Below, in pieces: positions 1 through 49,903 of a stretch of 64,000 bases of DNA. The notes below the pieces were generated by a model. That model was not told where the DNA came from, made no database searches, and saw nothing but the letters and a program-made list of their open reading frames with translations. The DNA is from Terriglobia bacterium (lineage in GTDB: Bacteria; Acidobacteriota; Polarisedimenticolia; Polarisedimenticolales; JAIQFR01), in contig CAWBOP010000011.1 in NCBI GenBank assembly GCA_963790465.1, forward strand, positions 73,984-137,983. Direction: 5' to 3'. Within the stretch, counting starts at the first letter, position 1. Every line of letters starts with the position of its first letter. Position numbers and translations under genes: made by a program.

Positions 1-47
1 CCGCCCTCACGCGTATCACCTCTCCAACAACCCGGGAGGACCACGAC

Positions 48-31203: not shown

Positions 31204-31693
31204 ATGACCCGCTCCGCGCCGACCGCACCTGTCCGCAATGCACTCCCCGACGAAGGCCGCTGGCTGATCGAGATCCTGCTGGCGCTCGCCATCGCGACCG
31301 CGGCGGTCTTCCTCGCGGCCCGCTACATCGCAATTCCCTGGACGGTTCTCGGCCGCTCCATGGAGCCCACGCTCGAGCCGGGCGACCGAGTCCTCGTGGA
31401 TCTTCGCTCGTATCGCGCCCGCGCACCGGCACCCGGGGAGATCGCGCTTTTCGAGGGGCCCGATCGCACTCCTCTGGTCAAGAGAGTTGTCGCCGGACCC
31501 GAGCCTTCCGACGGGCCGCCGCCGTGGTCGCTCGATCCCGGAGACCCGATCTCGCGACGTTTCTGGGTGCGAGGGGATAACGCTCGCGAGAGCGCGGACA
31601 GCAGGGTTTTCGGTGGGGGTGCCGGCCGGGAGATTTCGCGGACGGGTTATCTTTCGGTACTGGCCGGTTTCTCGGATGGGATGGGTGAGGTGA
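31204..31693 (+). CDS. lepB: Signal peptidase I (S26), with an apparent +1 indel in a G-run near the 3-prime end
   Basis: GRSMEPTLEPGDRVLVD (catalytic Ser box), PLVKRVV, GDNARESADSRVFG. The conserved C-terminus VPAGRFRGRVIFRYWP is in another frame (ORF 31487..31693). One fewer G in GGGGG 31615-31619 restores ...SRVFGGVPAGRFRGRVIFRYWPVSRMGWVR*. Confidence 0.8.
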
Positions 31694-31732
31694 CATAGCC
31701 AGTTCCTGCACGACCAATCCCAATCCCAACCC

Positions 31733-31987
31733 GACGCGGATTTCCGGGGATTTCATCCCCGGACCCCTGGCAACCACCGTTCGCAGGGATCGGCGGACCG
31801 ATCCCCGCGAACGGCGGTTTCTACCTGCAAGCCCGACCCGAGCAGGGTTCGAACTCCGGACTCCCAAGTGGAAACCTCCGTTACGGACGGCAGTCCGCTG
31901 CCGTCCGTAATGGAGGTTGCGCGGGCGTTCGCCCGCGGAGGAGAAAAATCCGTTAGCGTCGCCGCCGAGTCGGAATCCCCGCATGAC
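31733..31987. repeat. Repeat unit 1 (255-nt core)
   Basis: GACGCGGATTTCCGGGGATTTCATCCCCGG ... GAGTCGGAATCCCCGCATGAC. Has one G-to-A change in the second hairpin (GCAGGG). Confidence 0.9.
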
Positions 31988-32005
31988 AAACTTCCAATCC
32001 CGCCC

Positions 32006-32260
32006 GACGCGGATTTCCGGGGATTTCATCCCCGGACCCCTGGCAACCACCGTTCGCGGGGATCGGCGGACCGATCCCCGCGAACGGCGGTTTCTACTTG
32101 CAAGCCCGACCCGAGCAGGGTTCGAACTCCGGACTCCCAAGTGGAAACCTCCGTTACGGACGGCAGTCCGCTGCCGTCCGTAATGGAGGTTGCGCGGGCG
32201 TTCGCCCGCGGAGGAGAAAAATCCGTCAGCGTCGCCGTCGAGTCGGAATCCCCGCATGAC
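32006..32260. repeat. Repeat unit 2 (255-nt core)
   Basis: Hairpins at 32016-32036, 32050-32087 (17-bp perfect stem, loop CGGA), 32148-32189 (19-bp stem, loop TCCG) and 32193-32210 (7-bp stem, loop GTTC). Confidence 0.9.
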
Positions 32261-32322
32261 GGATCCCGATCCGGACCCGACGAACCACCGATTCTCAACC
32301 GACAAACCACCGATCCCAACCC

Positions 32323-32577
32323 GACGCGGATTTCCGGGGATTTCATCCCCGGACCCCTGGCAACCACCGTTCGCGGGGATCGGCGGACCGATCCCCGCGA
32401 ACGGCGGTTTCTACTTGCAAGCCCGACCCGAGCAGGGTTCGAACTCCGGACTCCCAAGTGGAAACCTCCGTTACGGACGGCAGTCCGCTGCCGTCCGTAA
32501 TGGAGGTTGCGCGGGCGTTCGCCCGCGGAGGAGAAAAATCCGTTAGCGTCGCCGCCGAGTCGGAATCCCCGCATGAC
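32323..32577. repeat. Repeat unit 3 (255-nt core)
   Basis: Near-identical to units 1 and 2. Confidence 0.9.
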
Positions 32578-32618
32578 GGATCCCGATCCCGGACCCGACA
32601 AACCACCGATCCCAACCC

Positions 32619-32873
32619 GACGCGGATTTCCGGGGATTTCATCCCCGGACCCCTGGCAACCACCGTTCGCGGGGATCGGCGGACCGATCCCCGCGAACGG
32701 CGGTTTCTACTTGCAAACCCGACCCGAGCGAGGTTCGAACTCCGGACTCTCCAGTGGAAACATCGATTACGGACGACGGTCCGCCGTCGTTCGTAATCGA
32801 TGTTGCGCGGGCGTTCGCCCGCGGAGGAGAAAAATCCGTTAGCGTCGCCGTCGAGTCGGAATCCCCGCATGAC
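32619..32873. repeat. Repeat unit 4 (255-nt core, variant third hairpin)
   Basis: The third hairpin, 32761-32802, has 10 substitutions relative to the other copies, yet the 19-bp stem is retained. Confidence 0.9.
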
Positions 32874-32935
32874 GGATCCCGATCCGGACCCGACGAACCA
32901 CCGATTCTCAACCGACAAACCACCAATCCCAACCC

Positions 32936-33160
32936 GACGCGGATTTCCGGGGATTTCATCCCCGGACCCCTGGCAACCACCGTTCGCGGGGATCGGCGGA
33001 CCGATCCCCGCGAACGGCGGTTTCTACTTGCAAACCCGACCCGAGCGAGGGTTCGAACTCCGGACTCCCAAGTGGAAACCTCCGTTACGGACGGCAGTCC
33101 GCTGCCGTCCGTAATGGAGGTTGCGCGGGCGTTCGCCCGCGGAGTAATAAAATCCGGATT
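32936..33160. repeat. Repeat unit 5 (3-prime end diverged after about 33144)
   Basis: Full hairpins 1-4, then GCGGAGTAATAAAATCCGG instead of GCGGAGGAGAAAAATCCGT. Confidence 0.85.
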
Positions 33161-33217
33161 CGCACACGAAAAAGCGCAGGCCCACCCGACCCGAGCGCAG
33201 GTTCGAACTCCGGACCC

Positions 33218-34038
33218 TTAAGTTGAAACCTCGCCAGGATTCAAGCTTCCGGTCCGGTAGCCTTCGAGGTCCAGGGCGACGAAGCGAAAACCGGCCGCCT
33301 TGACCGCCGCCACCACCGCGCTCCGAAGCGCGGGGTCGGACAGGCGGCGGTCGCCGTCGGGATCGAATTCCAACCTCGCGATGTCTCCGTGGTGGCGCAC
33401 CCTGAACTGGCGGAAACCGATCTCCCGCAACGACTCTTCGGCGCGTGAGACCTGGCCGAGGCGCTCCTCGGTGACCTCGATCCCGACAGGGATCCGCGAG
33501 GAGAGGCAGGCGCTGGCCGGTTTGTCCTTGGTCCTCAGGCCTGCGGCCGAGGCAAGGACACGGACATCTTCTTTCGACATGCCGGCCTCGAGCAGAGGCG
33601 CGATGACCTGCCGCTCCTCCGCCGCGCGCATGCCGGGCGGAAATCGCCGCGATCCTCCGCGATCGCGCCGTAGGCGACCGCCGGGAACCCGCGCTCGGCG
33701 GCAATGCGGCCCAGCGACTCGAACAGGGCCGACCGGCAGTGGTAGCAGCGGTCGCCGGCATTGGCGCGGTATTCCGGGATGTCGAGCTCGCCCGGGTCGA
33801 CCTCGACGTGGGAGACACCGAGGGCGGCTGCTGTGTCCCGGGCGTCGGTCTCGTCCTGCCGAGGTAGCGAGGCCGAGCGGCCGGTGACCGCGAGAACCCG
33901 GTCCGTCCCGAGCGCCTCGACCGCGAGCGAGAGCAGGACGGCGGAGTCCACCCCCCCCGAAAAGGCGACCACGACACTTCCGGCGTGACGAAGGCAGGCC
34001 AGAGCTTTTTGCTTCTTTTTAAGAATTGCTGAATTCAT
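33218..34038 (-). CDS. larE: PP-loop ATP-utilising enzyme, LarE-like sulfur transferase family (one apparent frameshift near 33632-33640)
   Basis: VVAFSGGVDSAVLL (PP-loop SGGxDS), DRCYHCRSALF, then, in a second frame (ORF 33218..33631), MRAAEERQVIAPLLEAGMSKEDVRVLA...ACLSSRIP. The join DRGDFRPGMRAAEE needs one extra base at CCGGG 33633-33637. Confidence 0.8.
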
Positions 34039-34289
34039 CGCTCGCTCCAGCCCCCGCGTCGCGTCCCGGCTTTTGGCGCTGCCCGCAGGCCGTCGCGCCG
34101 GAAATCGTCTTCTTCATCCTAGCACTTCGGCGCGACCGCCTGCGGTCGGTGGAACCGCAAAACGCAGGGGAGAACGGCTTGACAACCCGTGGCGATCACC
34201 GTACATGAACGTTGCCCCGTGAGGGAACTGTGTATCGGGTAGACTCTATAGTCCGTTGTGTCCCACTAACCCAAAAGCAGGAGGAGGAT

Positions 34290-37200
34290 ATGCGCATTCG
34301 TTTTCTCGCTGGCTGGAGAGGCCTGACGTTGGCCGCAGCCGTCGCGAGCTTGGTGCTGCTGTCGGCGACGGGAGCCTTCGCAACTGTCGTCGCGAACCCG
34401 ATCGGCGGAACCCAGGGATTCGCCGCCGCGTCGGAAGAGAACACCATCAAGCAGCCGACGCTGTACCCCAGGGCCAACTACCAGTGGCAGTACGGCACTG
34501 GCCCCTTCTATGGGGAGGTGGACGAATCGAACTGGAACGCCAAGGGGGTCATGCACCTGTCCGTCGGCTCGTTCGACACAGGCCGTGGACTCCCGAACAT
34601 TCCGCAGGAACTGCGAACGGCCGTCAAGCTTGACCGACAGGCGGCCCAGTATTTCCTGCTGCAGGTCGATCCGGCGTCGTTCGCCGACGGCTCGTTCGAC
34701 CGGCTCAAGGAGAGCGTCGAAGCAAGCGGGGGCGCCGTCGTGCAGAGCATGCCGGTCGCTGGCTTCGTCGTCCGCCTGACCCCGGCTGCCTTCTCGGCGG
34801 TCCAGGGGCAGCCCGGCGTGCTCTTCCTCGAGCCCTACCATCCCGCGTTCAGAATTTCTCCGTACCTTGGCCGCGTCCCGCTGACGGACCCGGTGAAGGC
34901 TCTGTCGAGCGTCTACTCCGTCGAGATCACGCTGTTCCCGGGCGAGGACTCCAAGGTCGTCGCGCAAGCGGTGGCCGCTCTCGGCGCGAACGTCACGGCG
35001 ATCTGGAGCGACGTGGTGAAGGCCGACGTTTCTCGCGAAAAGATCTCGCAGATCGCGGCCCTCGAGCCCGTCGCGATGATCTTCGAGGAGATTCAGAACC
35101 TCCCGAAGAGCGAAGAGACCACGACGGTTATCCAGCAGGGGCATTACACCAATGGTGCGATCCCCTACCACGACGCCGGGATCAAAGGCAGCGGGCAGCT
35201 TCTCATGGTGCTCGACAGCGGCATCCAGCTCGACGCCGGCGACATATCGGACACCTACTCCAACGCCGGAACGCCCGGCGCGCTGCACCGCAAGGTGCAG
35301 TGGTACACGACGACCAATACGTACCTCGGCGCGGGCGACGCGCTCGGGTGCGACGCGCCCCAGCAGGGCGGCTTCACGCACGGCCAGATGGTGTCAGCCA
35401 CCGCGCTCGGAAACGGCAGCGCGACGTCGCTCGCTTACGGCGGCGCGTGGTACTACACCGATCCGCTCAGCGGCAAGAAGTGGAAACTCGACGGCGTCGC
35501 GCCCGGCGCGCGCGTCGGGCTCTACGACGCCAGCGTGACCGCGACCACCACTTCCTGCGACGACCCCGCCGTGAGCGGGATCTTCCCGGGCAACATCTAC
35601 ACCCGCCCCGGCGTGGCGGGCACAGGTTCCCTGAGCGACGCGTACACGCTCGGCGCGCGCGCGTTCAACTTCTCCTGGGGTCAATACCAACAACCCGGTT
35701 TACGGCACGAACGCCACGAAGATCGACCAGTTCCTGTTCGACAACAAGGACGCCATGCTTTTCGTGTCCGCCGGCAACTCGGCCCTGGACACGGACCGCA
35801 ACGGCTTCCCGGACTCGCTCTCCGTTTCCGACCCGGCGACCGCGAAGAACGCCATGGTCGTCGGTGCGACCGACACGGCGAACGACGGCGGCCTCGACAC
35901 CACGAAGCGCCGCGCCTCCTTCTCGAGCATCGGCCCGGCGACCTTGACCTCGGGGCGCACCGCCCCGGTCATCATGGCCCCCGGCCAGGACATCGGCACT
36001 CTCGGCCCGCTGTCGGAGTACTCCTGCCGCACGAACGACAACGACCAGAACAACCCGGTCGAGTGCGACGTGATGCTCGGCGTGGCCGGCACCAGCTTCG
36101 CGTCTCCTGCCGCCGCGGGCGCGGCCCTTCTCGTTCGCGACTACTTCGTCCAGGGGTTCTATCCCGACGGCACCGCGAGCAACACGCTGAACGCGGCGGA
36201 CCAGGTCCCGAACATCTCCGGCGCGCTCGTGAAGGCGATCCTGATCGCGTCCGCCGATTTCCTCAATTACCCCTGCTACTTGGGGGATCCGAGCTGCACG
36301 ATCAGCACGGCGAACCCGACCAAGTACCGCTTCAACAACGAGCAGGGGTACGGGCGCGTCCAGTTGAACAACATCCTGCCGCTGCTCACCTACCCGAGCC
36401 CTGTCGGCCTGATCGTGGCGGACGGCGGGATGGTCGGCGGAGTCAACAACACGTCGTTCTCGGGCACCGCGGGCGCGGGCACCACCGAGACGTACACCTT
36501 CACGATCTCCGACACCACGAAAGAACTGCGGGTCGGCCTGGCCTGGATCGAGGACGCCTCGGACGCCTTGGCGAACGACCTCGATCTCGAGCTTGTGTCT
36601 CCCAGCGGAAAGATCTACTGGGGCAACTACTTCACGGACGACAACGACAGGGACCGGCAAAGCGATGTCGGCGAAGATTGCGCCGTAGCTCCGTGGGAGG
36701 CATTGGCCACCGCGGACTTCTACCCGTGGAGCCTTCCCACCTGCGCGAACTCGATGCGCGACACGAAGAACCCGACCGAGGCGATCTTCCTGTCTCCCCA
36801 CCCGGATTACACCGTCGGCGCGGGTTCCACCCTGCCTGATCCCGATCCCAAGAACCAGCTCGAGGCCGGGTCCTGGACCCTCAAGGTGATCGGACGGACG
36901 GTCCCCGCGGGCAGCCAGAAGTACGCGGTGGCGATCGCCGGGCCGGTCCAGCTCGGCTCCTCGGTTCGCCTCAACGTCTACCGGGCCATCAGCGGCACGG
37001 ACGTGCTGGTCGGCGACCTCCCCGCCTGCAACGACAAGGTGAAGGTGGTCGTCAACGAGTACGCCGACGTCACCGATCCGACGCCGACGACCTCGCAGGT
37101 CAGCGCCCGGACCGTCGTGCAGGTCCTCGACAGTGTCGGAAGCGTTATGGACCAGGAGACCAACCTGGCCTTCACGCAGGACGCCGGCACGCTCAAGTAC

Positions 37201-40200
37201 AGCTCCTCGATGGTGATCCTCACCGACAGCATGCTGCCGGTTTCCGGCAACGGCGTCCTCGATGTGCGCGATGGTCAGACGATCAAGGTGTTCTACAACG
37301 ACCAGACCAGCGGGTCGGCCGATCCGAACAAGACGCGATTCAACCAGACGACCGTCTACTGCCGCAGCACGATTCTGTTCGGCGGCGTCACGTTCGGCCT
37401 GTTCGGCAAGGACATGGCGGTGGCGATCAATGGCGGCTGCGAGCGGGATGCTCGCGGCATGTTCACGTTCGGCTACCCCGACCAGTACATGGATCACGGC
37501 GAGCTGATCGACTTCCAGATCGCCGTCCAGACAGCGGATACGACGGATCTCGAGGACGCGGTCGCCACGCTCAAGGCCGTGTACCACGACCTCGACAGCC
37601 CGGCGAGCTGCCTGCCGAACACCACCGGGTGTACCGATCCGAACCGGACGAACAACGTCCCGGTCGCAAGCTCGATTCTCACCGTGCTGGACTCGCCGAA
37701 GATTATCGGCCTCATCCCGGCCCAGTACAGCCCGAACGTCAACCAGACGTCGGCGCCGGTCTTCGCGGTGAACTTCACGATCCAGATGGGGGCCGTGATC
37801 ACCGGGAAACTCGACGTCGACATGATCCTCGGCATCTCCGCACGGAAGGCCGGCAAGCCGATCGAGGGGCTCTCCGTCTACCGGATGGACCTGAACGCCA
37901 ACGAGACGGCGCTCTATTACTCGACCGATTTCCCGACCGGCGGCACCCAGAACTACGACTGGAACAACAACGAGTCGCTCGAGAATCCCTCTTCGATGCT
38001 GGGCGATGTCAACGTCCAGTGGGACTACCACTTCGAGACCGTGACCTGGTCCGACCTGACCGCGGGCGGCACTCGTAACACGTCGCTCCAGTCGCCCTGG
38101 AAATTCGACACGAACAACGGCGGATTCCGCTCGGGGCTCAACTCCGGGACCAACGCCGCCACCTCCGGTGTGCTCGCGCAGTGGGGCGAGGACAAGAACT
38201 TCAACGACATCCTGGACACCGGTGAAGACCGCGACCCGTCCAATAGCCTTCTGGACCAGAACTGGTCCACGAAGGGCGGTTGCGGGTGGCAGACCAAGGC
38301 CCTCACCACCAGCGCCACGGGCGGTGTCTGGCACACCGGCAGGATCGACGTGACGACCCTGTCGCAATGCGCCAAGAGCGGGAGCATCAGTTCCCAGTGC
38401 CAGACTTACGAGACATACCCCGGCATCACCGCACAGAGCTACTGGTGGGAGCTCCTCGAGACGCCGGTGATCAATAAGGTCAACCCGACGGTTGACGCCG
38501 AGGGCCGGCCCGTCTACCGCGTGCAGTTCACCAACTGGGCGTGGAACATGGCAATCGACATGCCGGACTCCCTCGCGATGATCACCTGGGAGTTCGACAC
38601 CGATCTCGACAAGATCAGTCCTATCACGCTCGAGGCGGACGGCAACCTCTTCAACAGCCTGTCCGGCGCGTTCGGGACGGTCAGCATGGGCAATGCGCCG
38701 CTGACCAACGGCTTCCCGGTGTTCGCCGATTTCAACGGCACCGGCGCGACCACATCGAAGAACGGCACGATCGGCGGGAACCACGAAGGGAAGAATCCCT
38801 GCACCTTCGAGGAGTACGGATCCCGCTACACCCCGTACGGGTTTGCCCTCCCGGTCGACGACGATCTCCGTAACGGCTGGTGCGAAGCCGCGAACGTGGC
38901 GGACCGCACCTGGAACAAGCAGACGTCGTGCACGACCGCGGACCAGGCGACGGTCTGCCTGGCGCCGACGTATCACGGCCTCTGCGTGTTCGACGCCGGC
39001 TCGTCGACCGACCTGTACGTCTACAAGAACGGACCGCTGCGCAACATGAACCTCGAACACGTGAACGGTTGGATCGACGGCCGGTACTACACGCTCGAGG
39101 ACATCTACGGCGACTCCGGCTCCCGCTTCCAGGGGGCCGTCGGGTTCGTCGCGTTCGAAGGAACGACCAGCCTCGCGCCGAAGAACGGCTACGGTGTCGC
39201 GATCGACGACATGGTGGTGGAGTGGAAGGAAACACGGACCGACGAGGACACCACCACCAACTGCAGCACGGCGGGAGCCTGCGCAACGCTCAACCTCTCC
39301 GCTGGGACGTTCTACTCCGGCCTCGCGGTGCTCGAAATCACCGTGACCGACCGGTCGCCCGGCAACCTGTTGGGCGTGAATGACTGCGACCACAACGGCC
39401 TTTACACCGATCTGGGGGTAGACGACAACGACTGCGACAACAACGGAACCCCCGACGTGCCTCTCCAGGCCTACAACGACGTCGAGCCGCTCGGCGAATG
39501 GGTGGTCCTGAACCAGACCAGCGTCACAGGGGTGTTCAAAGGGAACTTGCCGATCTCCTCGGCCTTCGACTCGGCGGGCACCCTCTTCGTCCAGAAGCAG
39601 GGGACGTCGCCGGCGTCGGTGACGGTCAAGTACCTCGACCCGAACGACGGAACCGGCCAGCCCTGCAAGGCGAGCCCCGACGCCGCCCAGTGGGGCCAGG
39701 TGCAGGCCTACGCGAGCGTCTACGTTCCGTTCCTGAACGTCACCGTCAAGTCGAGCCGGGTCGTGAGCCTCACGGGAGACGGCGACGGTTTCGCCGACAC
39801 GAACGAGACGGCGCAATTGTGGATCACCATCTCGAACAAGTCCACCGTCGACCTCACCAACATCGTGGCCCGGCTGGTCTCGAACGACCCCAAGGTCGAC
39901 TGCATCCTGCAGCCGACGATCACGATGGCGTCGCTCGCCAAGCTGACCACCCAAGAGATCGGTACCCCGTTCGTGTTCCACGTTTCGTCGACAGCCAGCC
40001 GGCCGGCCGGCGGCGAGAACAGCGAATTCACGGCGAAATTCAGCGTCACGATCGCCTCCGACCAGATGGATGCGACCTCCGCTGCCCAGGAGATCACGAA
40101 GGAGTTCGATCTCGACATGACGGGCGGGGGCACGGCGCTGAACTACGTCGAGGGGTTCGAGGGGGGCTTCGGAACGTTCACCTCGATGTCGCTGGACAAG

Positions 40201-41898
40201 GGACTCAACACCAACCTGCTGTCCGACGGCATGCGTTGCCAGTACAGCGACCCCGACTACATCAACTCCAACTCCTACGGCGAGAAATACTGCTACCTGG
40301 GATTCGCGGGCAAAACCGATGAGTTCAACATTTTCGACTGGCACATTCACTCGACCGCGAGCCCCGACGGCGGACGCGCCTTCCTGGGAAGTAATTCCCT
40401 GCACTACGGCTTCCACCAGTCGGCCTCGGCGGACAACGACATAACCCACTTCTCCTCGATGGACGCGATCCGGATAAACAATCCGGTCAACCTCGGGTAC
40501 ACCCCCGTGACCCCAGGCGATCCCGAGATGTCGTTCAAGATGCAGGTTTCGATGATGGACTACCGCTCTGTCAACGCGCTCTTCATGCAGGCCCCCGACC
40601 GCGCTGTCGTCGAGCTCCAGTTCGCCGACACCGCCGGCACCCCCACGGGCGTCTGGCAGAAGCTGTATCCGTTCGAGAACACTTACGACATCCAGACCTC
40701 AAACAACTACATCAACTGTATTTTCGACCCGAGCGACGACGGCAACAACGAGGACAGCTATTTCTCGCCGACCGATCCGCTCAGGTGGTTGGGCCCCTCC
40801 ACCACCTGCTACCCGGAGTTCAACTTCGGGTCGGTCGGTAGCACCAACTGGAACAACGGGTTCATCCCCGGCACTACCGAGCGCGCTTCCGACGACCGCA
40901 TCGGCCTGCAGGGCTCGATCGATCGCGGCACCTGGGTCCAGACGAAGTTCAACTTCGATCGGTACCTCGGCCGCAGCGTCCGTCTCCGTTTCCTCGCAAC
41001 CACGATCAAGGTGAACGACACCACGGATTGCATCGCGCTCGGCTTCCCGAACAAGAGGTCGCTGGACGACGGGTGGTGGATCGATGACCTCCGGATCTCC
41101 AACACGATGAGCAGCCCGGCCACGATATCCGCGGACACCAAGGACAACTCCGCGCTCGCGGCCTGCCCGGCCAACTGCACGACGGTCACGGCAGCGCTCG
41201 TCTCCAGCCCGAGTACCGCTCTCGCGGCGCCCGGCCAGGTGGTTGAGCTTCGCGCCGCCGGCTCGTCCGCCGACATCTGCCTCTCCGGCACGCTCCAGTA
41301 CCAGTTCTGGCTCGACAACAATAGCAACGGAACGTTGAGCACCGTCGACGGCGACACGCTGGCGCGCGATTGGTCCGACAACTCGGCGTACATCGATGCT
41401 CCGCTGTACTCGACGCAATATGGCGTCAAGGTCCGTTGCTCCTCGGCGCCGACTTGCGCGAGCCAAGCGGTCCGCGCCGTCGTCGTCACCTGCCCGGGCA
41501 CCGTGCAGACGTTCTTCTGCCCCACCATCTACGTCAACAAGCTCAATCTCACTGGCACCGTCGAACCGGACAACACCGTCTGGGTCGCGGGCCTTACCGC
41601 GGCTACCCCTGTCGACGTGATTGCCGGCAATCTCACCGCGCTGAGGACTGCCAAAACCTACACCGGCAGCGCGCTGGCGTGCCTGGCGAACGACGGCACC
41701 CTCCCGTATTACATCCCCATCGGCCCAACGATCCTCGACACGACGCTGGCGCTCACCCCCGGCCAGGCGCAGTACTACCTGTGCCGGCCCCAGGGGGCGA
41801 GTTACTGCAACGCGAAATACACCTACAGCGCGGGCGCCCCGAAGGAATTGGCGGGTCGCGACACCGAGATCGCCGCGGGCGCGATCAAGTGCCCCTGA
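34290..41898 (+). CDS. Giant secreted subtilisin-like serine protease (peptidase S8), about 2,500 aa, with a very long C-terminal extension (one apparent frameshift at G-run 35677-35680)
   Basis: AGGAGGAGGA RBS then ATG 34290. Signal peptide MRIRFLAGWRGLTLAAAVASLVLLSATGAFA. Catalytic triad context: LMVLDSGIQ (Asp), GGFTHGQMVSATALG (His), LFVSAGNS (oxyanion Asn), GVAGTSFASPAAAGAALL (Ser). The protein continues from ORF 34212..36839 into ORF 35755..41898 at ...AFNFSWG/VNTNNPVYGTNATKIDQFLFDNKDAMLFVSAGNS. Confidence 0.85.
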
Positions 41899-47217: not shown

Positions 47218-48351
47218 TCATGACGACCGCGCATCGTACGGATCTTCCGTCGACTTCGGTTCACGCGTCGCCGCTCGAATCGATTGCAGTCCGAAAGACG
47301 CCACGTAGAACCGGCCGCGCTTCTCGCCGTGCGCGACGAGAAACCCGGCGTCCACGAGGAGCTTCAGGTCCCTGCTCGCGACGAAGTCCGAGACCTCCGC
47401 GACCGAGCGATACGTGGCGTTCCGCACCTTGAGGCCGGACGCGGCATCCGCCAGCGCGAGGATGACGCGCTCCGGCAGGTGCTTCTGGGCCAGCTCCTGC
47501 TCCAGCGCATTCCAGAGACGGGCCGTTTCCTTCGTTCGCCTCAGGAGCGTGCTGGCCTGCCTGTGGTGCGCGGTCAGTATGAACCGTACCCACGGTCTTG
47601 TATCGCGGCTCGGGTCCCAGCCGCCGCCGCCCACGCTTGCGAGCACGTCGTAGTACGCCCGGGTGTTTCGGCCAAGGTACTCTTCGATGCTGCAGAAGTG
47701 AGTGGAGAGGATCCCTTCCCGCGCCAGTGCCAGGGTCTGAAGGCACCGGGCCATGCGGCCGTTTCCATCGGCGTGGGGATGGATCATGACGAAGTTCAAG
47801 TGGGCCATGCCCGCGCGCACGAGAACCGGCGTGCCTATGTCGGCGGCGTTCAGCTCCGCGACGAGCTCGTCCATGAGAGCAGGCACGAACTCCGCCGGCG
47901 GTCCTTCGTATACCGTCTCGTGCTTCTCCTCGTCACGCACGAAGATCGGACCTCGGCGCCACTTCCCCGGCGCCTTCGCCAGGTCGTACTGAAGCATCAT
48001 GTAGTGGAGACTTCGCAGTAGCCCCACCGAGTGGGCGAAGTGCGGATCGTCGGCGAGTTGCAGGACATAGGTCATCGCCTGCCGATAGCCTCTCACGGCC
48101 ATCCAGGCGTCGGCGCTTGCGTCCAGAGGATCCTGGCCCTCGGCGGCGGCGATCGCGTCGTCCACCGTGACGTTGTAACCCTCGATGGTGTTGGAACCGC
48201 GAATGGCGCGGGCGAAGGCGACCCGCCGGAGCAGACCGGTCCACCTCTTCGGCTCGCCTCCCACCGCGTACCGCAACACGCGCCGAAGCTCGTCGACTTC
48301 CGCGATCACCCTCGCGTCGTGCTCGTCCAGCTTCGGCGCTTCGAAGAGCAT
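47218..48351 (-). CDS. Fic/DOC family protein (AMPylase-type) with N-terminal inhibitory-helix motif and C-terminal wHTH-like region
   Basis: Fic motif HPHADGNGRMARCL. SNTIEG matches (S/T)xxxE(G/N). ATG 48351 follows GGAGAA; TTG 48366 is an alternative start. Confidence 0.85.
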   Translation of the reverse strand: MLFEAPKLDEHDARVIAEVDELRRVLRYAVGGEPKRWTGLLRRVAFARAIRGSNTIEGYNVTVDDAIAAAEGQDPLDASADAWMAVRGYRQAMTYVLQLADDPHFAHSVGLLRSLHYMMLQYDLAKAPGKWRRGPIFVRDEEKHETVYEGPPAEFVPALMDELVAELNAADIGTPVLVRAGMAHLNFVMIHPHADGNGRMARCLQTLALAREGILSTHFCSIEEYLGRNTRAYYDVLASVGGGGWDPSRDTRPWVRFILTAHHRQASTLLRRTKETARLWNALEQELAQKHLPERVILALADAASGLKVRNATYRSVAEVSDFVASRDLKLLVDAGFLVAHGEKRGRFYVASFGLQSIRAATREPKSTEDPYDARSS

Positions 48352-48376
48352 GCCATTCTCCAGCAACTCAAGTCAT

Positions 48377-48405
48377 ATAATAACCGACTCCGAATCGGTT
48401 GTCAA
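48377..48405 (-). promoter_or_regulatory. Consensus-like sigma70 promoter of the Fic gene with an embedded inverted repeat
   Basis: On the - strand: TTGACA (48405-48400), 17-nt spacer ACCGATTCGGAGTCGGT containing the inverted repeat ACCGA...TCGGT, then TATTAT (48382-48377). Confidence 0.5.
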
Positions 48406-48727
48406 TTGCTTATCCGACTTGAGGCTTCAAGCCATTGATGGGACTGACCTTGGCAAAGTCGAAGACGCTCCTCGGGACTCCGCCATGCGGCACAGCGCCA
48501 CCAGGTCGGTCTCAACGATGCCGCGACGCGGGAGCTAAGCGACACACCCACCGTCGCATTCTCTCTCTTCACGGCGCCGTGAAATATAATACCCATAATT
48601 GACATATATGCTCATAACAGGTAATATTTAAACTGAAGTTCCCGGGCCTGTAGGCACAGAAATCCACGGACACCGTTGCCAGATCAAAGGAAAGGTTGAA
48701 ATTCGTGTGTCATAACGTTGGCCACGA

Positions 48728-49903
48728 TCAGGGCGTCTGCGACCCTGAACGAGAAGAGGTCTCCCTGCTCAACCATTTTCCCAAATGCGAAATGGAACAG
48801 ACATCGAATTCCAATCCGGCGACGGATCGGCGTTTGGGCTGGACGGCGTCCGACACAACCAAGAGGTTTTTTCCGCCCGGGTAGTAACGCCGGAAAGCCG
48901 CGACCGCATCGGCCGAAAACGTCCGTTCCTTCCATTTGCATTCGATGGCCAGGGGAGCGCGGCCGCGGGGCGCCAGCACAAAATCAATTTCGTGCCCCTG
49001 TTTCGTCCGCCAATACGAGGGCGCGTGCCCGTGGGCCAGGAGCTCATTCAGCACCAGGTGCTCCCAAAGCGGCCCGCAATCATCGGGCCGCAGAGTCTGC
49101 CAGCCACGGTAGTAACAGACGAAGCCGGTGTCAAAGGCATAGACCCTGGGTGCGGCGACGATCTCCGTCGTCTTGCGCGTGGAATAGGGCCGCACGCGGG
49201 TGGCCACGAACGTCGTTTCGAGCGCCGACAGGAAGTTGTGGATCGTCGGCCGGCTGACCTCGCAGTCCGCGGCGAAGCTGGTGGCCTCGAAAATGCCACC
49301 GCTCCGGGCAAAGATGAGCTCCACGAAACGGAGAAAGGCAAATCGCCGGTCGAACCGAAAAAGTGCCTGGATGTCTTTCGACCAGTACGAATCCATCCAA
49401 TCGGTGAAGTCCTCGTCCAAGGAGCGGGGGTGCATAAAAAACGGAGGCAGTCCGCCCTGCAGGAAACGGTGGGACAGGTCGGGCTGTCGAAAATCGAGCA
49501 GATCCTGCCAGATCATGGGCGTGAGATGAATCACCCGTTTTCGGTCGGTCAGCGTGTCGCGGAATTTTCGGGTCGCGGCAAGCGTGGAAGAACCGGTGGC
49601 CAGGATTCGAAGATGGGGAAAATGGTCGGCGGCGATCTTCAACAGCTCGGCCGGGTTCTTCAATCGGTGAATTTCATCGAAAACGATCCGTCGGCCTGTA
49701 ACGTGGCGGAAGAAGTCCTCCGGATCCTCAAGATCGCGTCGGACCCGAGGCAACTCGCAGTCGAGAAAGTTCGTCTCGCCCAAGCTCCTGGCCAAGAAGG
49801 TCTTGCCCGCCCTTCGAACACCGGCCAGCCAGACGATTGACTTTTGGCGCCAAGCCTGGGCGATCCTTTCCAACCAGAAGTCGCGTCTAACCATATGCAA
49901 CAT
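48728..49903 (-). CDS. AAA-family ATPase with DUF4143-type C-terminal domain
   Basis: Walker A GVRRAGKTFL, Walker B RIVFDEIH, 391 aa. Visibly lower G+C than the flanking genes. Confidence 0.85.
   Translation of the reverse strand: MLHMVRRDFWLERIAQAWRQKSIVWLAGVRRAGKTFLARSLGETNFLDCELPRVRRDLEDPEDFFRHVTGRRIVFDEIHRLKNPAELLKIAADHFPHLRILATGSSTLAATRKFRDTLTDRKRVIHLTPMIWQDLLDFRQPDLSHRFLQGGLPPFFMHPRSLDEDFTDWMDSYWSKDIQALFRFDRRFAFLRFVELIFARSGGIFEATSFAADCEVSRPTIHNFLSALETTFVATRVRPYSTRKTTEIVAAPRVYAFDTGFVCYYRGWQTLRPDDCGPLWEHLVLNELLAHGHAPSYWRTKQGHEIDFVLAPRGRAPLAIECKWKERTFSADAVAAFRRYYPGGKNLLVVSDAVQPKRRSVAGLEFDVCSISHLGKWLSRETSSRSGSQTP

Follow-up and report, generated by a model that had tools for sequence, protein, structure and literature searches.

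The variant hairpin of the fourth unit of a tandem array is best explained, with about an even chance in our estimation, as a module of a new lineage-restricted and non-coding foldback repeat family, which is REP/BIME-like but not a strict REP member. The array (~1.5 kb) lies between the 3′ ends of two converging genes in the window, that is, the whole 64-kb stretch of DNA that was analysed (table 1). The stems of its hairpins vary by paired substitutions, with stem length, loop, and flanks remaining constant. The view that the fold rather than the sequence may be conserved, much as in REP-like bacterial repeats, is partly supported by these sequence comparisons.

The array comprises five units of 273, 317, 296, 317, and ~221 nt, the last one with an alternative tail, and a relic sixth copy of the core motif (M3). 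TRF gave periods of 273/296/317, and the unit lengths of 273, 296, and 317 nt are set by the number of ~22-nt sub-repeats in the linker. Each unit is pseudo-symmetric, with two inverted modules facing each other across a core of ~45 nt, and in each module a GTRGAAAC tag is followed by a perfect 21/22-bp hairpin with a TCCG loop, by TTGC, and by a short GC hairpin. Each element of ~230 nt is a diverged inverted duplication whose modules point away from the core and whose arms are ~50–60% identical in inverted orientation. The ends of the element are GACGCGGATTT and AAATCCG..GCGTC, and the elements, together with a variable C/A-rich linker, are reiterated head-to-tail. All ten hairpins of 21–22 bp are intergenic and form palindromes of 46–48 nt, in which hp2(−) and hp3(+) alternate five times with fixed spacing. 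The hp2 of unit 1 is a 22-bp inverted paralogue of hp3 with one extra G.T on the − strand, and hp2 of unit 3, in the − strand reading, is GTAGAAAC-CGCCGTTCGCGGGGATCGG-tccg-...-TTGC. The ends of M3 are inverted repeats of one another, a 16-mer within it (GGTTCGAACTCCGGAC) is invariant, and the core contains the short palindromes TTGCAA, GTTCGAAC, and TCCGGA. The relic M3 extends over the final five codons and the stop of larE (..GEVST*). The sequence of hp4 is identical in the metagenome contig L029.

Table 1. Features of the tandem array and its flanks, in positions of the window
Feature	Position	Strand	Remarks
Left flank: signal peptidase S26 gene	31204–31698	+	Pfam; Logan contig L001
Whole tandem array	31709–33232	.	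TRF, repeat families D1-D4, unit alignment
hp1 of unit 4, short hairpin CCGGGGA-tttca-TCCCCGG	32630–32648	−	
Other hp1 copies	31744, 32017, 32334, 32947		
hp2 of unit 1	31772–31819	−	RNAfold −44.0 on −, −36.5 on +
hp2 of unit 2	32045–32092	−	
hp2 of unit 3	32362–32409	−	RNAfold −46.2 on −, −42.7 on +
hp2 of unit 4	32658–32705	−	Same as in other units
hp2 of unit 5	32975–33022	−	
Core M3 of unit 4 with two inward-facing tags (GTTTCTAC ... GTGGAAAC)	32703–32761	.	
Other M3 cores with tags	31817–31875, 32090–32148, 32407–32465, 33020–33079		
Sixth, relic M3 copy	33184–33232	.	Overlaps larE end
hp3 of unit 1, major allele	31873–31918	+	RNAfold −40.0 on +, −36.0 on −
hp3 of unit 2, major allele	32146–32191	+	
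hp3 of unit 3, major allele	32463–32508	+	
hp3 of unit 4, variant hairpin, 21 bp, TCCG loop	32759–32804	+	19-bp core 32761–32802; RNAfold −34.1 kcal/mol on +, −30.1 on −
hp3 of unit 5, major allele	33077–33122	+	
Divergent mosaic patch of unit 4	32730–32801	.	14/16 differences from unit 3
hp4 of unit 4, short hairpin GCGCGGGCGTTCGCCCGCG	32805–32823	+	
Other hp4 copies	31919, 32192, 32509, 33123		
Tail (GGAGGAGAAAAATCCGTYAGCGTC...) and C/A-rich linker of unit 4, ~22-nt sub-repeats	32823–32935	.	
Right flank: larE, ATP-dependent sacrificial sulfur transferase, frameshifted here	33218–34038	−	

The array is considered non-coding because the GC content of the three codon positions (GC1/2/3) is flat in every array ORF (0.57–0.68, with GC3 at 0.81–0.96 in real genes) and a six-frame translation of one unit had no match among 5.8 billion proteins. 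A coding repeat was likewise rejected, as the period is no multiple of 3 and codon bias is absent. The S26 gene on the left is the final member of an ABC peptide-transporter operon, with its true stop probably at 31691–31693. A scan of the array gave no sigma-70-like promoter. Neither hp2 nor hp3 has the hairpin followed by a T-run of an intrinsic terminator, and this function was rejected for both; the sole terminator-like site nearby is at 33193–33177(−), just past larE. The ORFs scanned across the window included no gene for a HUH/RAYT protein, a transposase, or an integrase, ARAGORN and Rfam detected no tRNA or tmRNA in the window, and no target-site duplication was recognised around the element.

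In copies 1, 2, 3, and 5, the major form of hp3 is CCTCCGTTACGGACGGCAG-tccg-CTGCCGTCCGTAATGGAGG, and the form of copy 4 (32761–32802) is CATCGATTACGGACGACGG-tccg-CCGTCGTTCGTAATCGATG. On re-checking, the sequences and coordinates of the original prediction matched exactly. The ten substitutions that it counted in 42 nt between the two forms are located at positions 2, 5, 6, 16, 18, 25, 27, 31, 38, and 41. As it described, they include four double changes in the stem (C-G to A-T, C-G to G-C, G-C to A-T, and A-T to G-C), and the two remaining changes turn one G.T into A-T and one G-C into G.T. The tccg loop is identical in both forms, the stem length is equal, and all 19 pairs are standard in each, with one G.T apiece. 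In a simulation of ten random substitutions, all 19 pairs stayed intact in 16 of 300,000 trials, and the commonest outcome was the breakage of 6–7 pairs. The stem had been given as 19 bp, which is correct for the core, but an AA/TT extension makes the full stem 21 bp.

The rest of copy 4 had been described as nearly unchanged. Its differences from copy 3 are indeed few (16 in the first 250 aligned bases), but the hairpin is not the sole contrast. In detail, 14 of the 16 differences fall inside one patch of 72 nt, which includes four unpaired changes immediately 5′ of the hairpin. The true contrast is between a mosaic patch and a homogenised remainder, rather than between the hairpin and the rest of copy 4. 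A donor sequence for the patch is absent from the 64-kb window.

Covariation was examined in six distinct hairpin sequences, in which 98.2% of the cells are paired and 12 of the 19 stem pairs are changed on both sides. The observed score was reached by none of 500 shuffles, and slid registers pair at 30–49%. Two further arrays (P0184 and P0183) are known as spurious ORFs only; they were read as translations, and their hairpins were deduced by codon threading. Exact look-ups of P0183, of P0123, and of proteins of the window mostly gave no record. The seven additional hairpins obtained in this way show one impossible pair in 150, and several of their double changes are forced. The claim that structure and not sequence is maintained holds to the extent that pairing, stem length, and loop are kept family-wide while the stem sequence varies. 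For a palindrome, covariation alone is insufficient to tell RNA, ssDNA, and templated mutation apart. GAAAC is the invariant flank across the family. The tags preceding it in the window are GTGG (five times), GTAG (five times), and GTTG in the relic; elsewhere, L005 has TAAG and GTTG, L029 has ATAG and GTGG, and P0184 implies ATH.

The idea that the stem of copy 4 changed in place is not supported in that form; instead, nested and fully paired alleles are found in other arrays and organisms. Along the 21-bp stem, the changed pairs are {8} in L029, {8,14} in P0184, and {7,8,14,20} in P0183, and copy 4 stands at the end of this series with {4,7,8,14,18,20}. Since the alleles form a nested and always-paired series, the allele of copy 4 is old rather than the product of a burst in place. 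Its location in the 72-nt patch points to an old allele that was either kept or imported by recombination. The G.T wobble at pair 14 is common to copy 4, P0183, and P0184, which is an indication that it is long-lived. The units of the array evolve concertedly.

The original prediction also mildly favoured the + strand. This applies to hp3, whereas for its inverted partner hp2 the − strand gives the more stable fold. When both strands were folded with RNAfold, the outward-reading strand was favoured by 3.5–7.5 kcal/mol in both hairpin types, and this strand reads 5′-GTRGAAAC-hairpin-TTGC outward from the core of the unit. The G.T wobbles mostly favour the same strand (+ for hp3, − for hp2), with the exception of one inferred G.T on the opposite strand in hp2 of P0183. 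Similarly, the covariance model scored 72–77 bits in the outward orientation and 36–43 bits in reverse.

Three syntenic relatives (L002, L003, and L004; LarE identity 74–77%) keep the gene order subtilase-larE> <S26-permease-SBP. The array is absent from the same site in all of them, and the larE-S26 gap is only 1–34 nt. At the same larE site of closer relatives, L005 carries the core and an hp2 homologue and L006 the core, and in both the same tail and core are located 3′ of larE. Related elements occur in two metagenome contigs. The element of L029 is at another locus, adjoining a TonB-dependent-receptor-like gene; this gene offered no route to further loci, its best homologue being merely 53% identical. 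The P0184 array is on a contig of 209,666 nt, probably the same contig as the window and outside of it, and the P0183 array is on a contig of 177,340 nt. At least two types of locus were seen directly (the larE/S26 site and L029), and two more arrays were deduced from ORFs. The family is present at several loci and is lineage-restricted, and relatives that are slightly more distant lack it at the corresponding site.

The copy number appears to be low. Even an unfiltered covariance-model search gave no other copies in 62 kb of flanking sequence, and the protein-level matches were only two among 1.84 billion representatives. No match was found in 185,579 species genomes, a second genome scan gave three chance hits in coding DNA, and blastn of one unit against plasmids and phages gave no match. 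The exact core pattern had zero matches in the genome, metagenome, and viral collections. A looser pattern in metagenomes gave at least one true locus (L029) among the matches listed; the others listed were almost all a coding amidohydrolase motif or chance.

If the element is a REP/BIME-like foldback repeat, it would be read as a folded single strand. This strand could be ssDNA on which a structure-specific enzyme of the HUH/RAYT type acts during spread. Equally, it could be RNA, present in transcripts that read through from the converging operons, and the capped 21–22-bp stem could then block 3′ exonucleases or serve as a site for a double-strand-specific nuclease. Only variants which keep the stem would persist, and unequal crossing-over or gene conversion would keep the units of the array homogeneous. 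Unit 4 would have escaped this homogenisation or would have received an older allele of the right-hand module by ectopic conversion, with a tract of 72 nt.

An element that acts solely as RNA and serves the host, with DNA mobility irrelevant, would be a small-RNA gene array or a set of bidirectional 3′-UTR stabiliser or terminator hairpins; each unit would provide structured RNA, and selection on the RNA fold would maintain the stems. The array is placed exactly between two convergent 3′ ends, as such an element should be, and its stem lengths are constant (21 and 22 bp). Moreover, the G.U-type wobbles are mostly on the strand where the hairpin is distal to the incoming transcript, and the loop is UCCG (UNCG-type) on that transcript-distal strand only, although its G-C closing pair differs from the extra-stable C(UNCG)G context. 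The explanation is nevertheless unlikely, given that syntenic relatives manage without the array, that no sigma-70-like promoter was found, that the long stems have no T-run, and that no Rfam family is reached at threshold. The same element with conserved termini is also found at unrelated loci, which is not expected of a locus-specific UTR. Without any selection, the paired changes would be a by-product of intrastrand template switching and the array a neutral minisatellite. During replication one arm of the palindrome would be copied from the other, and a single step would either remove a mutation or compensate it. Template switching is an established mutational mechanism at quasipalindromes (PMC7202029), and hairpins have been shown to arise and be maintained through it, several compensatory-looking changes occurring at once (bioRxiv 10.1101/2021.04.15.439925 / PMC8794818). 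The stems here are near-perfect palindromes with 4-nt spacers, and the array is dispensable in relatives. On the contrary, the G.T at the same position in three diverged arrays was never “corrected”, and other G.T pairs persist in 4/4 major copies and 5/5 hp2 copies. The non-palindromic TCCG loop and the GAAAC/TTGC flanks are conserved with one and the same orientation in hp2 and hp3, with a single inferred loop change in unit 2 of P0183, and this conservation in one orientation is unexplained by arm-to-arm copying. Such copying would also presuppose five changes in a single 19-nt arm, and an origin by template switching seems distinctly unlikely.

The palindromes might instead be double-stranded sites for a dimeric protein (centromere-like, partition, or regulator), with their dyad symmetry conserved rather than a hairpin. 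Plasmid centromeres consist of tandemly arrayed repeats with inverted repeats inside them, the core here has several short palindromes, and the array tags resemble what we take to be parS half-sites (GTGAAAC), which is a weak point in favour. However, the half-sites vary freely between alleles with the symmetry kept, so the specificity of the protein would have to change each time. The persistent G.T positions break the dyad, the TCCG centre is asymmetric, and no candidate gene for a binding protein was noticed beside the array; we regard such sites as very improbable. An assembly artefact, in which copy 4 stems from the variant of a co-assembled strain or from a wrongly joined repeat, is highly improbable as well, since the variant is coherent and fully paired and its intermediates are found in independent assemblies. 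The flanks of copy 4 also run into linker features of unit 4 that are present in unit 2, and the covariation result holds even with a wrong unit order. What speaks for an artefact are indel-type discrepancies with the short-read assembly of the same organism (e.g., an extra G in the S26 gene) and the short-read contigs L001 and L007, which end at the two edges of the array, so that copy number and order rest on one assembly. Finally, the modules may be substrates of an undescribed structure-reading system, that is, of a nuclease of a new kind (HUH or other) or of an effector that binds RNA, which we consider improbable. Such a system would measure the 21/22-bp stem, the UCCG cap, and the GAAAC/UUGC flanks. 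The covarying stem sequence would then be an address or specificity code and the arrays its multi-copy store, and the modules would form a new class of structured non-coding element and no REP variant.

The family offers a clean natural example of a stem that evolves via nested and always-paired intermediates. It also indicates that an apparent compensatory burst in one array can be an old allele embedded by recombination, which calls for caution in covariation arguments based on tandem copies. With its unusually large size and its pseudo-symmetry, this palindromic family of an uncultured Acidobacteriota-like lineage is an addition to the REP/BIME/MITE spectrum. If its reader (transposase, nuclease, or RNA decay machinery) is identified, it could extend the knowledge of structure-specific single-strand recognition.

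Several known systems were compared and rejected. Units 1–3 (+) matched the Rfam model RAGATH-10 (RF03147) with 30.7 bits (E = 0.0024 in 1.7 kb), below its gathering threshold of 41.2; GAAAC-hp3-hp4-GAGGAGAAA aligned with the 5′ GAAAC, the UCCG loop, the GGGC..GCCC hairpin, and the GAGGAGAAA tail of the model. Copy 4, copy 5, L029, and L005 had no such match, and in copy 4 the closing helix P1 (CCUCCG/CGGAGG) is destroyed, whereas the long hairpin is compensated. The score is hairpin-driven background, since an animal miRNA model with no relation to it gives the L005 hairpin 29.7 bits. At gathering thresholds no Rfam family was found, at E-value thresholds only RAGATH-10 and animal miRNA matches appeared, and a RAGATH-10-like pattern had four chance matches in viral contigs, none of them RAGATH-10. 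A CRISPR array, which has repeats of 24–48 nt and unique spacers, was rejected because the sequences between GAAAC motifs are repeated and palindromic and no cas domains were found among the window ORFs scanned. For a tRNA/tmRNA-derived element, GGTTCGAAC is present in the core without a complementary T-stem, and for a hammerhead core, GAAAC is present and CUGANGA absent. A 10-bp stem closing the core has uncompensated mismatches in copies 1 and 4, and a possible SD/anti-SD pairing (CCUCC/GGAGG) is lost in copy 4.

Integron attC sites resemble the modules in their structure-based recognition, with one folded DNA strand, freely covarying stems, and arrays, and AAC...GTT is at the base of the stem, as here. 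Extrahelical bases and an unpaired spacer in the centre are typical of attC, which also has core sites of the form RYYYAAC/GTTRRRY and flanks gene cassettes by intI. The perfect stems with a tetraloop, the match restricted to AAC/GTT, the non-coding “cassettes”, and the alternating orientation led to the rejection of attC, and no integrase was found near the array among the window ORFs scanned. Correia elements (CREE/NEMIS, Neisseria) and foldback MITEs are ~100–250 nt long, with inverted-repeat arms, no coding capacity, and positions near gene ends. Correia elements are co-transcribed and fold into long hairpins which are RNase III substrates. The element described here shares with them the inverted-repeat arms, the non-coding nature, and the proximity to gene ends. 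In Correia elements, however, the arms pair mutually, whereas here each arm folds on itself and the arms have diverged; tandem arrays are atypical of them, and their TA-type duplication was not identified here.

The REP/BIME repeats differ from the family primarily in size. GTAG REPs have stems of 5–13 bp in units of 20–40 bp (PMC3733652, Table 1), whereas the stems here have 21–22 bp, outside that size range, in modules of ~100 nt that each contain one additional short hairpin, and in units of ~300 nt. A terminal GTAG/GTRG tag is expected in >90% of REP members, and here the tag is poorly conserved outside the window, with GAAAC invariant. REPs are numerous and dispersed through their genomes, which also encode a cognate RAYT/TnpAREP (HUH Y1), its gene usually having REPs on its flanks. 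The family here appears to be of very low copy and very narrow distribution, and a RAYT gene is absent from the window ORFs scanned. In their architecture, on the contrary, the two are alike. Similarly to the array, REP/BIME repeats (GTAG REPs, SMAG of Stenotrophomonas, and REPIN doublets of Pseudomonas) are extragenic palindromes, often between convergent genes (PMC3733652, PMC2817692, PMC8266576). Published REPs include subfamilies distinguished by complementary stem variants, and G.T pairs are common in them; they also form dimers arranged tail-to-tail with a spacer, and such dimers can be repeated in tandem clusters along with the DNA beside them. The tag has GTRG/GTGG variants, and some REPs are located at gene ends (PMC3733652). 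Some REP groups have perfect palindromes, and the substrate of TnpAREP is folded single-stranded REP with a conserved motif ahead of it (PMC8266576). In the array, the respective features are the intergenic stem-loop palindromes in alternating, regularly spaced, and clustered units, the short tag by the stem, the inverted pairs with a spacer, the tandem clusters, the complementary stem changes, and the overlap with a gene end.

The hairpin hp3 reads CCTCCGTTACGGACGGCAG-tccg-CTGCCGTCCGTAATGGAGG in units 1, 2, 3 and 5 of the array (the major form) and CATCGATTACGGACGACGG-tccg-CCGTCGTTCGTAATCGATG in unit 4. The original prediction described these sequences, their coordinates and the compensated changes of copy 4, and all agree with the window sequence. 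In detail, the two alleles differ at 10 positions and have the same loop; four stem pairs are altered on both sides, one G.T becomes A-T and one G-C becomes G.T, and all 19 stem pairs of copy 4 are still standard. When 10 random substitutions were simulated on the 42-mer, all 19 pairs were kept in 16 out of 300,000 cases. The stem reaches 21 bp once the flanking AA/TT are counted.

Covariation was examined in six distinct half-units (tag, long hairpin, TTGC and short hairpin), that is, hp3 of the major form, copy 4 and the metagenome contig L029, and hp2, the inverted partner of hp3, of the major form, unit 1 and locus L005. In this alignment 98.2% of the cells pair, both-sided changes occur at 12 of the 19 pairs, the observed covariation is reached by none of 500 shuffles, and pairing falls to 30-49% when the partner is slid by 1-3 columns. 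The proposal that pairing is kept while the sequence changes thus holds family-wide. Seven more hairpins were constrained by threading the peptides P0183 and P0184, from other arrays, onto the reading frames of the window, their nucleotides being deduced and not observed; in six of them every pair is possible, and the seventh has one mismatch. The double changes forced in this way are A-T to G-C at pair 20 and T-A to G-C at pair 10 of hp3, and G-C to T-A at pair 8 and G-C to A-T at pair 14 of hp2.

On the + strand, each unit consists of the short hairpin hp1, hp2 (22 bp), GTTTCTAC, the core M3 (~45 nt, with the invariant 16-mer GGTTCGAACTCCGGAC), GTGGAAAC, hp3 (21 bp), TTGC, the short hairpin hp4, a tail beginning with GGAGGAGAAAAATCCGTYAGCGTC and a linker. 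On the - strand, hp2 is GTAGAAAC-CGCCGTT...-tccg-...-TTGC-short hairpin; in that orientation it has the plan and the loop of hp3 on the + strand, and the unit is therefore pseudo-symmetric. Its two ~115-nt arms show ~50-60% identity when aligned inverted. This alignment and the common plan show each element to be an inverted duplication that has diverged and has self-folding arms. A 10-bp stem closing the core was rejected, since units 1 and 4 have mismatches in it that are not compensated. The linkers are composed of ~22-nt C/A-rich sub-repeats (CCGATCCCAACCCGACGAACCA), which suggested no function and whose number accounts for the unit lengths of 273, 296 and 317 nt. An alternative tail, GGAGTMATAAAATCCGGATTCGYACACGA, with the 10-nt palindrome AATCCGGATT, replaces the internal tail in the last unit of three arrays, which suggests a defined element terminus. 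An internal rearrangement found in other arrays, but not in that of the window, has doubled the core's right half, giving GGGGTTCGAcaCCGGACTCttgaGTGGAAAC, a 13-nt truncated hairpin arm and GGGGTTCGAgtCCGGACTCtgaaaGTGGAAAC.

Features of the array and its surroundings
Feature	Sequence	Positions	Strand	Remarks
Left of array	window		+	SBP_bac_5, two permeases, signal peptidase S26
S26 end	window	31610-31698	+	extra G in G-run
S26 end	L001	5330-5410		
Tandem array	window	31709-33156		units of 273, 317, 296, 317 nt and truncated fifth
Linkers	window	32266-32326, 32888-32939		
Divergent tract	window	32730-32801		copy 4
hp3, 21-bp stem	window	32759-32804		unit 4
hp3, 42-mer	window	32761-32802		unit 4
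Alternative tail	window	33141-33183		
Alternative tail	L029	181-225		
Alternative tail	P0184	C-terminal part		
Core-half duplication	L029	1-130		P0183 and P0184 imply it as well
Relic sixth core copy	window	33184-33232		
larE (right of array)	window	33218-34038	-	preceded by very large subtilases; frameshift near 33631-33660
Giant subtilase region	window	34212-41898	+	two overlapping ORFs
Low-GC patch	window	47218-49903		0.59
Fic/DOC protein	window	47218-48366	-	in low-GC patch
Lowest-GC stretch	window	48363-48430		68 nt, 0.43
AAA_14/DUF4143 ATPase	window	48728-49903	-	in low-GC patch

The array is non-coding. Every array ORF has a flat GC content over the three codon positions (0.57-0.68), whereas GC3 is 0.81-0.96 in real genes of this genome, whose G+C content is 70%. 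The repeat period is not divisible by three, and the six-frame translation of the unit yielded no protein relative.

The + strand had been proposed as mildly favored, and this stands for hp3, which in both alleles folds 4 kcal/mol more stably on that strand. It fails for hp2, which folds 3.5-7.5 kcal/mol more stably on the - strand (window, unit 1 and L005), and the favored strands of the two modules run in opposite directions. On the strand reading 5'-GTRGAAAC-hairpin-TTGC, five independent transition mismatches take the form G.T, with one opposite-strand case deduced for hp2 of P0183. The loop is UCCG (UNCG-type) on the favored strand only, and the covariance model scores the favored orientation ~34 bits above the reverse. 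Folding of one specific single strand is suggested by these data, though not decisively.

Compared with the major hp3 of the window (pairs numbered on the 21-bp stem), the L029 allele differs at pair 8; in addition, it carries one G.A close to the loop that is not compensated and, towards the base of the stem, a C.T at pair 4 (C4 against a 3'-arm T). As deduced from translation, P0184 differs at pairs 8, 14 and also 10, and P0183 at pairs 7, 8, 14 and 20; in copy 4 the changed pairs are 4, 7, 8, 14, 18 and 20. Judged from these sequences, the alleles form a nested series and the copy-4 allele is old. In the core, copy 4, L005 and L029 have ACTCT versus ACTCC in the major form. The remainder of copy 4 had been described as near-identical to copy 3; only 16 of 250 aligned bases differ, but 14 of them lie in a patch wider than the hairpin. 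Other polymorphisms are mosaic between units, being common to 2 and 4 and to 4 and 5. The simplest history would be an array under concerted evolution in which one 72-nt tract holds the older allele, either kept from before or brought in by ectopic conversion; the window contains no donor. The G.T at pair 8 of the major allele looks derived from A-T.

Relatives of the element exist at several loci. In L005, whose LarE is 92% identical, a core copy lies 3' of the larE stop and is followed by the hp2 homologue CACCTTTCGCGCGGATCGG-tccg-CCGATCCGTGCGAAAGGTGG-TTGC, and L006 also has a core copy. In L029 the element adjoins an unrelated TonB-dependent-receptor-like gene and has CTCCATTACGGACGGCAG-tccg-CTGACGTCCGTAATGGAG as the homologue of hp3, the same hp4 as the window and the terminal tail of unit 5. 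An exhaustive phmmer search of 1.84 billion representatives with an array ORF returned two proteins only, P0183 (on a 177,340-nt contig) and P0184 (on a 209,666-nt NCBI/ENA contig, not encoded in the window), which are spurious ORFs through other arrays. The contig recorded for the larE fragments of the window has this same length of 209,666 nt, and in all likelihood P0184 represents another array of that contig. Thus, three homologous loci were read as DNA and two more arrays are known from translations alone. No other copy was found in the window, even by unfiltered covariance-model search, nor in 185,579 species genomes. Though real and present at several loci, the family is rare and narrow. 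The pattern TCGAACC(2-5N)GCTCGGGTCGGG, very common in metagenomes (at least loci L008-L127 among the matches listed), encodes the amidohydrolase motif S-N-L-K-L-G-S-G; further true members may lie behind such matches, beyond those listed.

The array is flanked by two transcription units that converge on it with their 3' ends, and the ORFs scanned across the window include no transposase, HUH, integrase or cas domains. LarE homologues are labelled as Acidobacteriota/Polarisedimenticolaceae MAGs. Short-read contigs of run ERR12035932 (L001 and L007) carry the same genes and end exactly at the two array edges. In three relatives (LarE 74-77% identical) the gene order is the same with only 1-34 nt from larE to the S26 gene, which makes the array a gain of this lineage. 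The relic core copy contains the final five codons and stop of larE (..GEVST), a tail otherwise found only in the two closest LarE proteins.

larE is split into overlapping ORFs of 167 and 137 aa, likewise in the independent short-read contig L007 (the intact protein of relatives has 273 aa), and is either a real pseudogene or frameshifted in this organism. An extra G in the window (ggtgggggtgcc vs ggtggggtgcc in the short-read contig L001) moves the point at which the S26 peptidase ORF ends, hinting at homopolymer errors typical of long-read assembly; the L001 frame yields the conserved ending ..FRYWPVSRMGWVR, and the true stop is probably the TGA at 31691-31693. The subtilase ORFs (875 and 2047 aa) correspond to single genes in relatives (products of 1694-2608 aa), and probably reflect another frameshift or indel. 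The low-GC patch (surroundings ~0.70) may be a small islet gained by horizontal transfer.

We give about an even chance to a foldback, REP/BIME-like repeat. Spread or persistence of the element would depend on its hairpins folding in single-stranded nucleic acid, and recombination would homogenize the units, with unit 4 holding an older allele. The anatomy, the lack of coding, the lineage-specific presence, the several loci of the family, the covariation and the mosaic patch are demonstrated by the data; a reader of the single strand, the choice between RNA and ssDNA, mobility and the direction of conversion are what we infer within this reading. It is unlikely that the array instead serves the host as RNA only, be it as a 3'-UTR stabilizer or as a small-RNA array. 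Slightly less probable again is that pairing is kept purely by mutation, through template switching: the mechanism is documented (PMC7202029, PMC8794818), but the asymmetric loop and flanks are conserved and G.T is common to several arrays, the one at hp3 pair 14 of copy 4, P0183 and P0184 indicating that it has persisted. Dyad-symmetric protein sites are very improbable, and we hold an assembly artefact to be just as improbable.

Among known families, Rfam gave none at threshold in the window. RAGATH-10 scored 30.7 bits on units 1-3 (threshold 41.2) and was rejected because copy 4, copy 5, L029 and L005 do not match, the compensated stem is not its closing helix, and a homologous hairpin reaches 29.7 bits with an animal miRNA model. 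Readings as CRISPR, integron attC, tRNA-derived element or intrinsic terminator each lack defining features. REP/BIME is the closest known organization. The array differs in its 21-22 bp stems, ~100-nt modules, weakly conserved tag and low copy number, with no RAYT in view; these differences are substantial, and it is therefore likened to a REP/BIME cluster in its working and not filed as a member. GTAG-type REPs have tag variants GTRG and GTGG, form tail-to-tail dimers with spacers, whose clusters are tandemly reiterated with flanking DNA, divide into subfamilies by complementary stem changes with frequent G.T pairs, and in some copies lie at gene ends (PMC3733652). Perfect palindromes occur in some REP groups, and the REPs on which TnpAREP works are single-stranded and folded, with a conserved motif ahead of them (PMC8266576).
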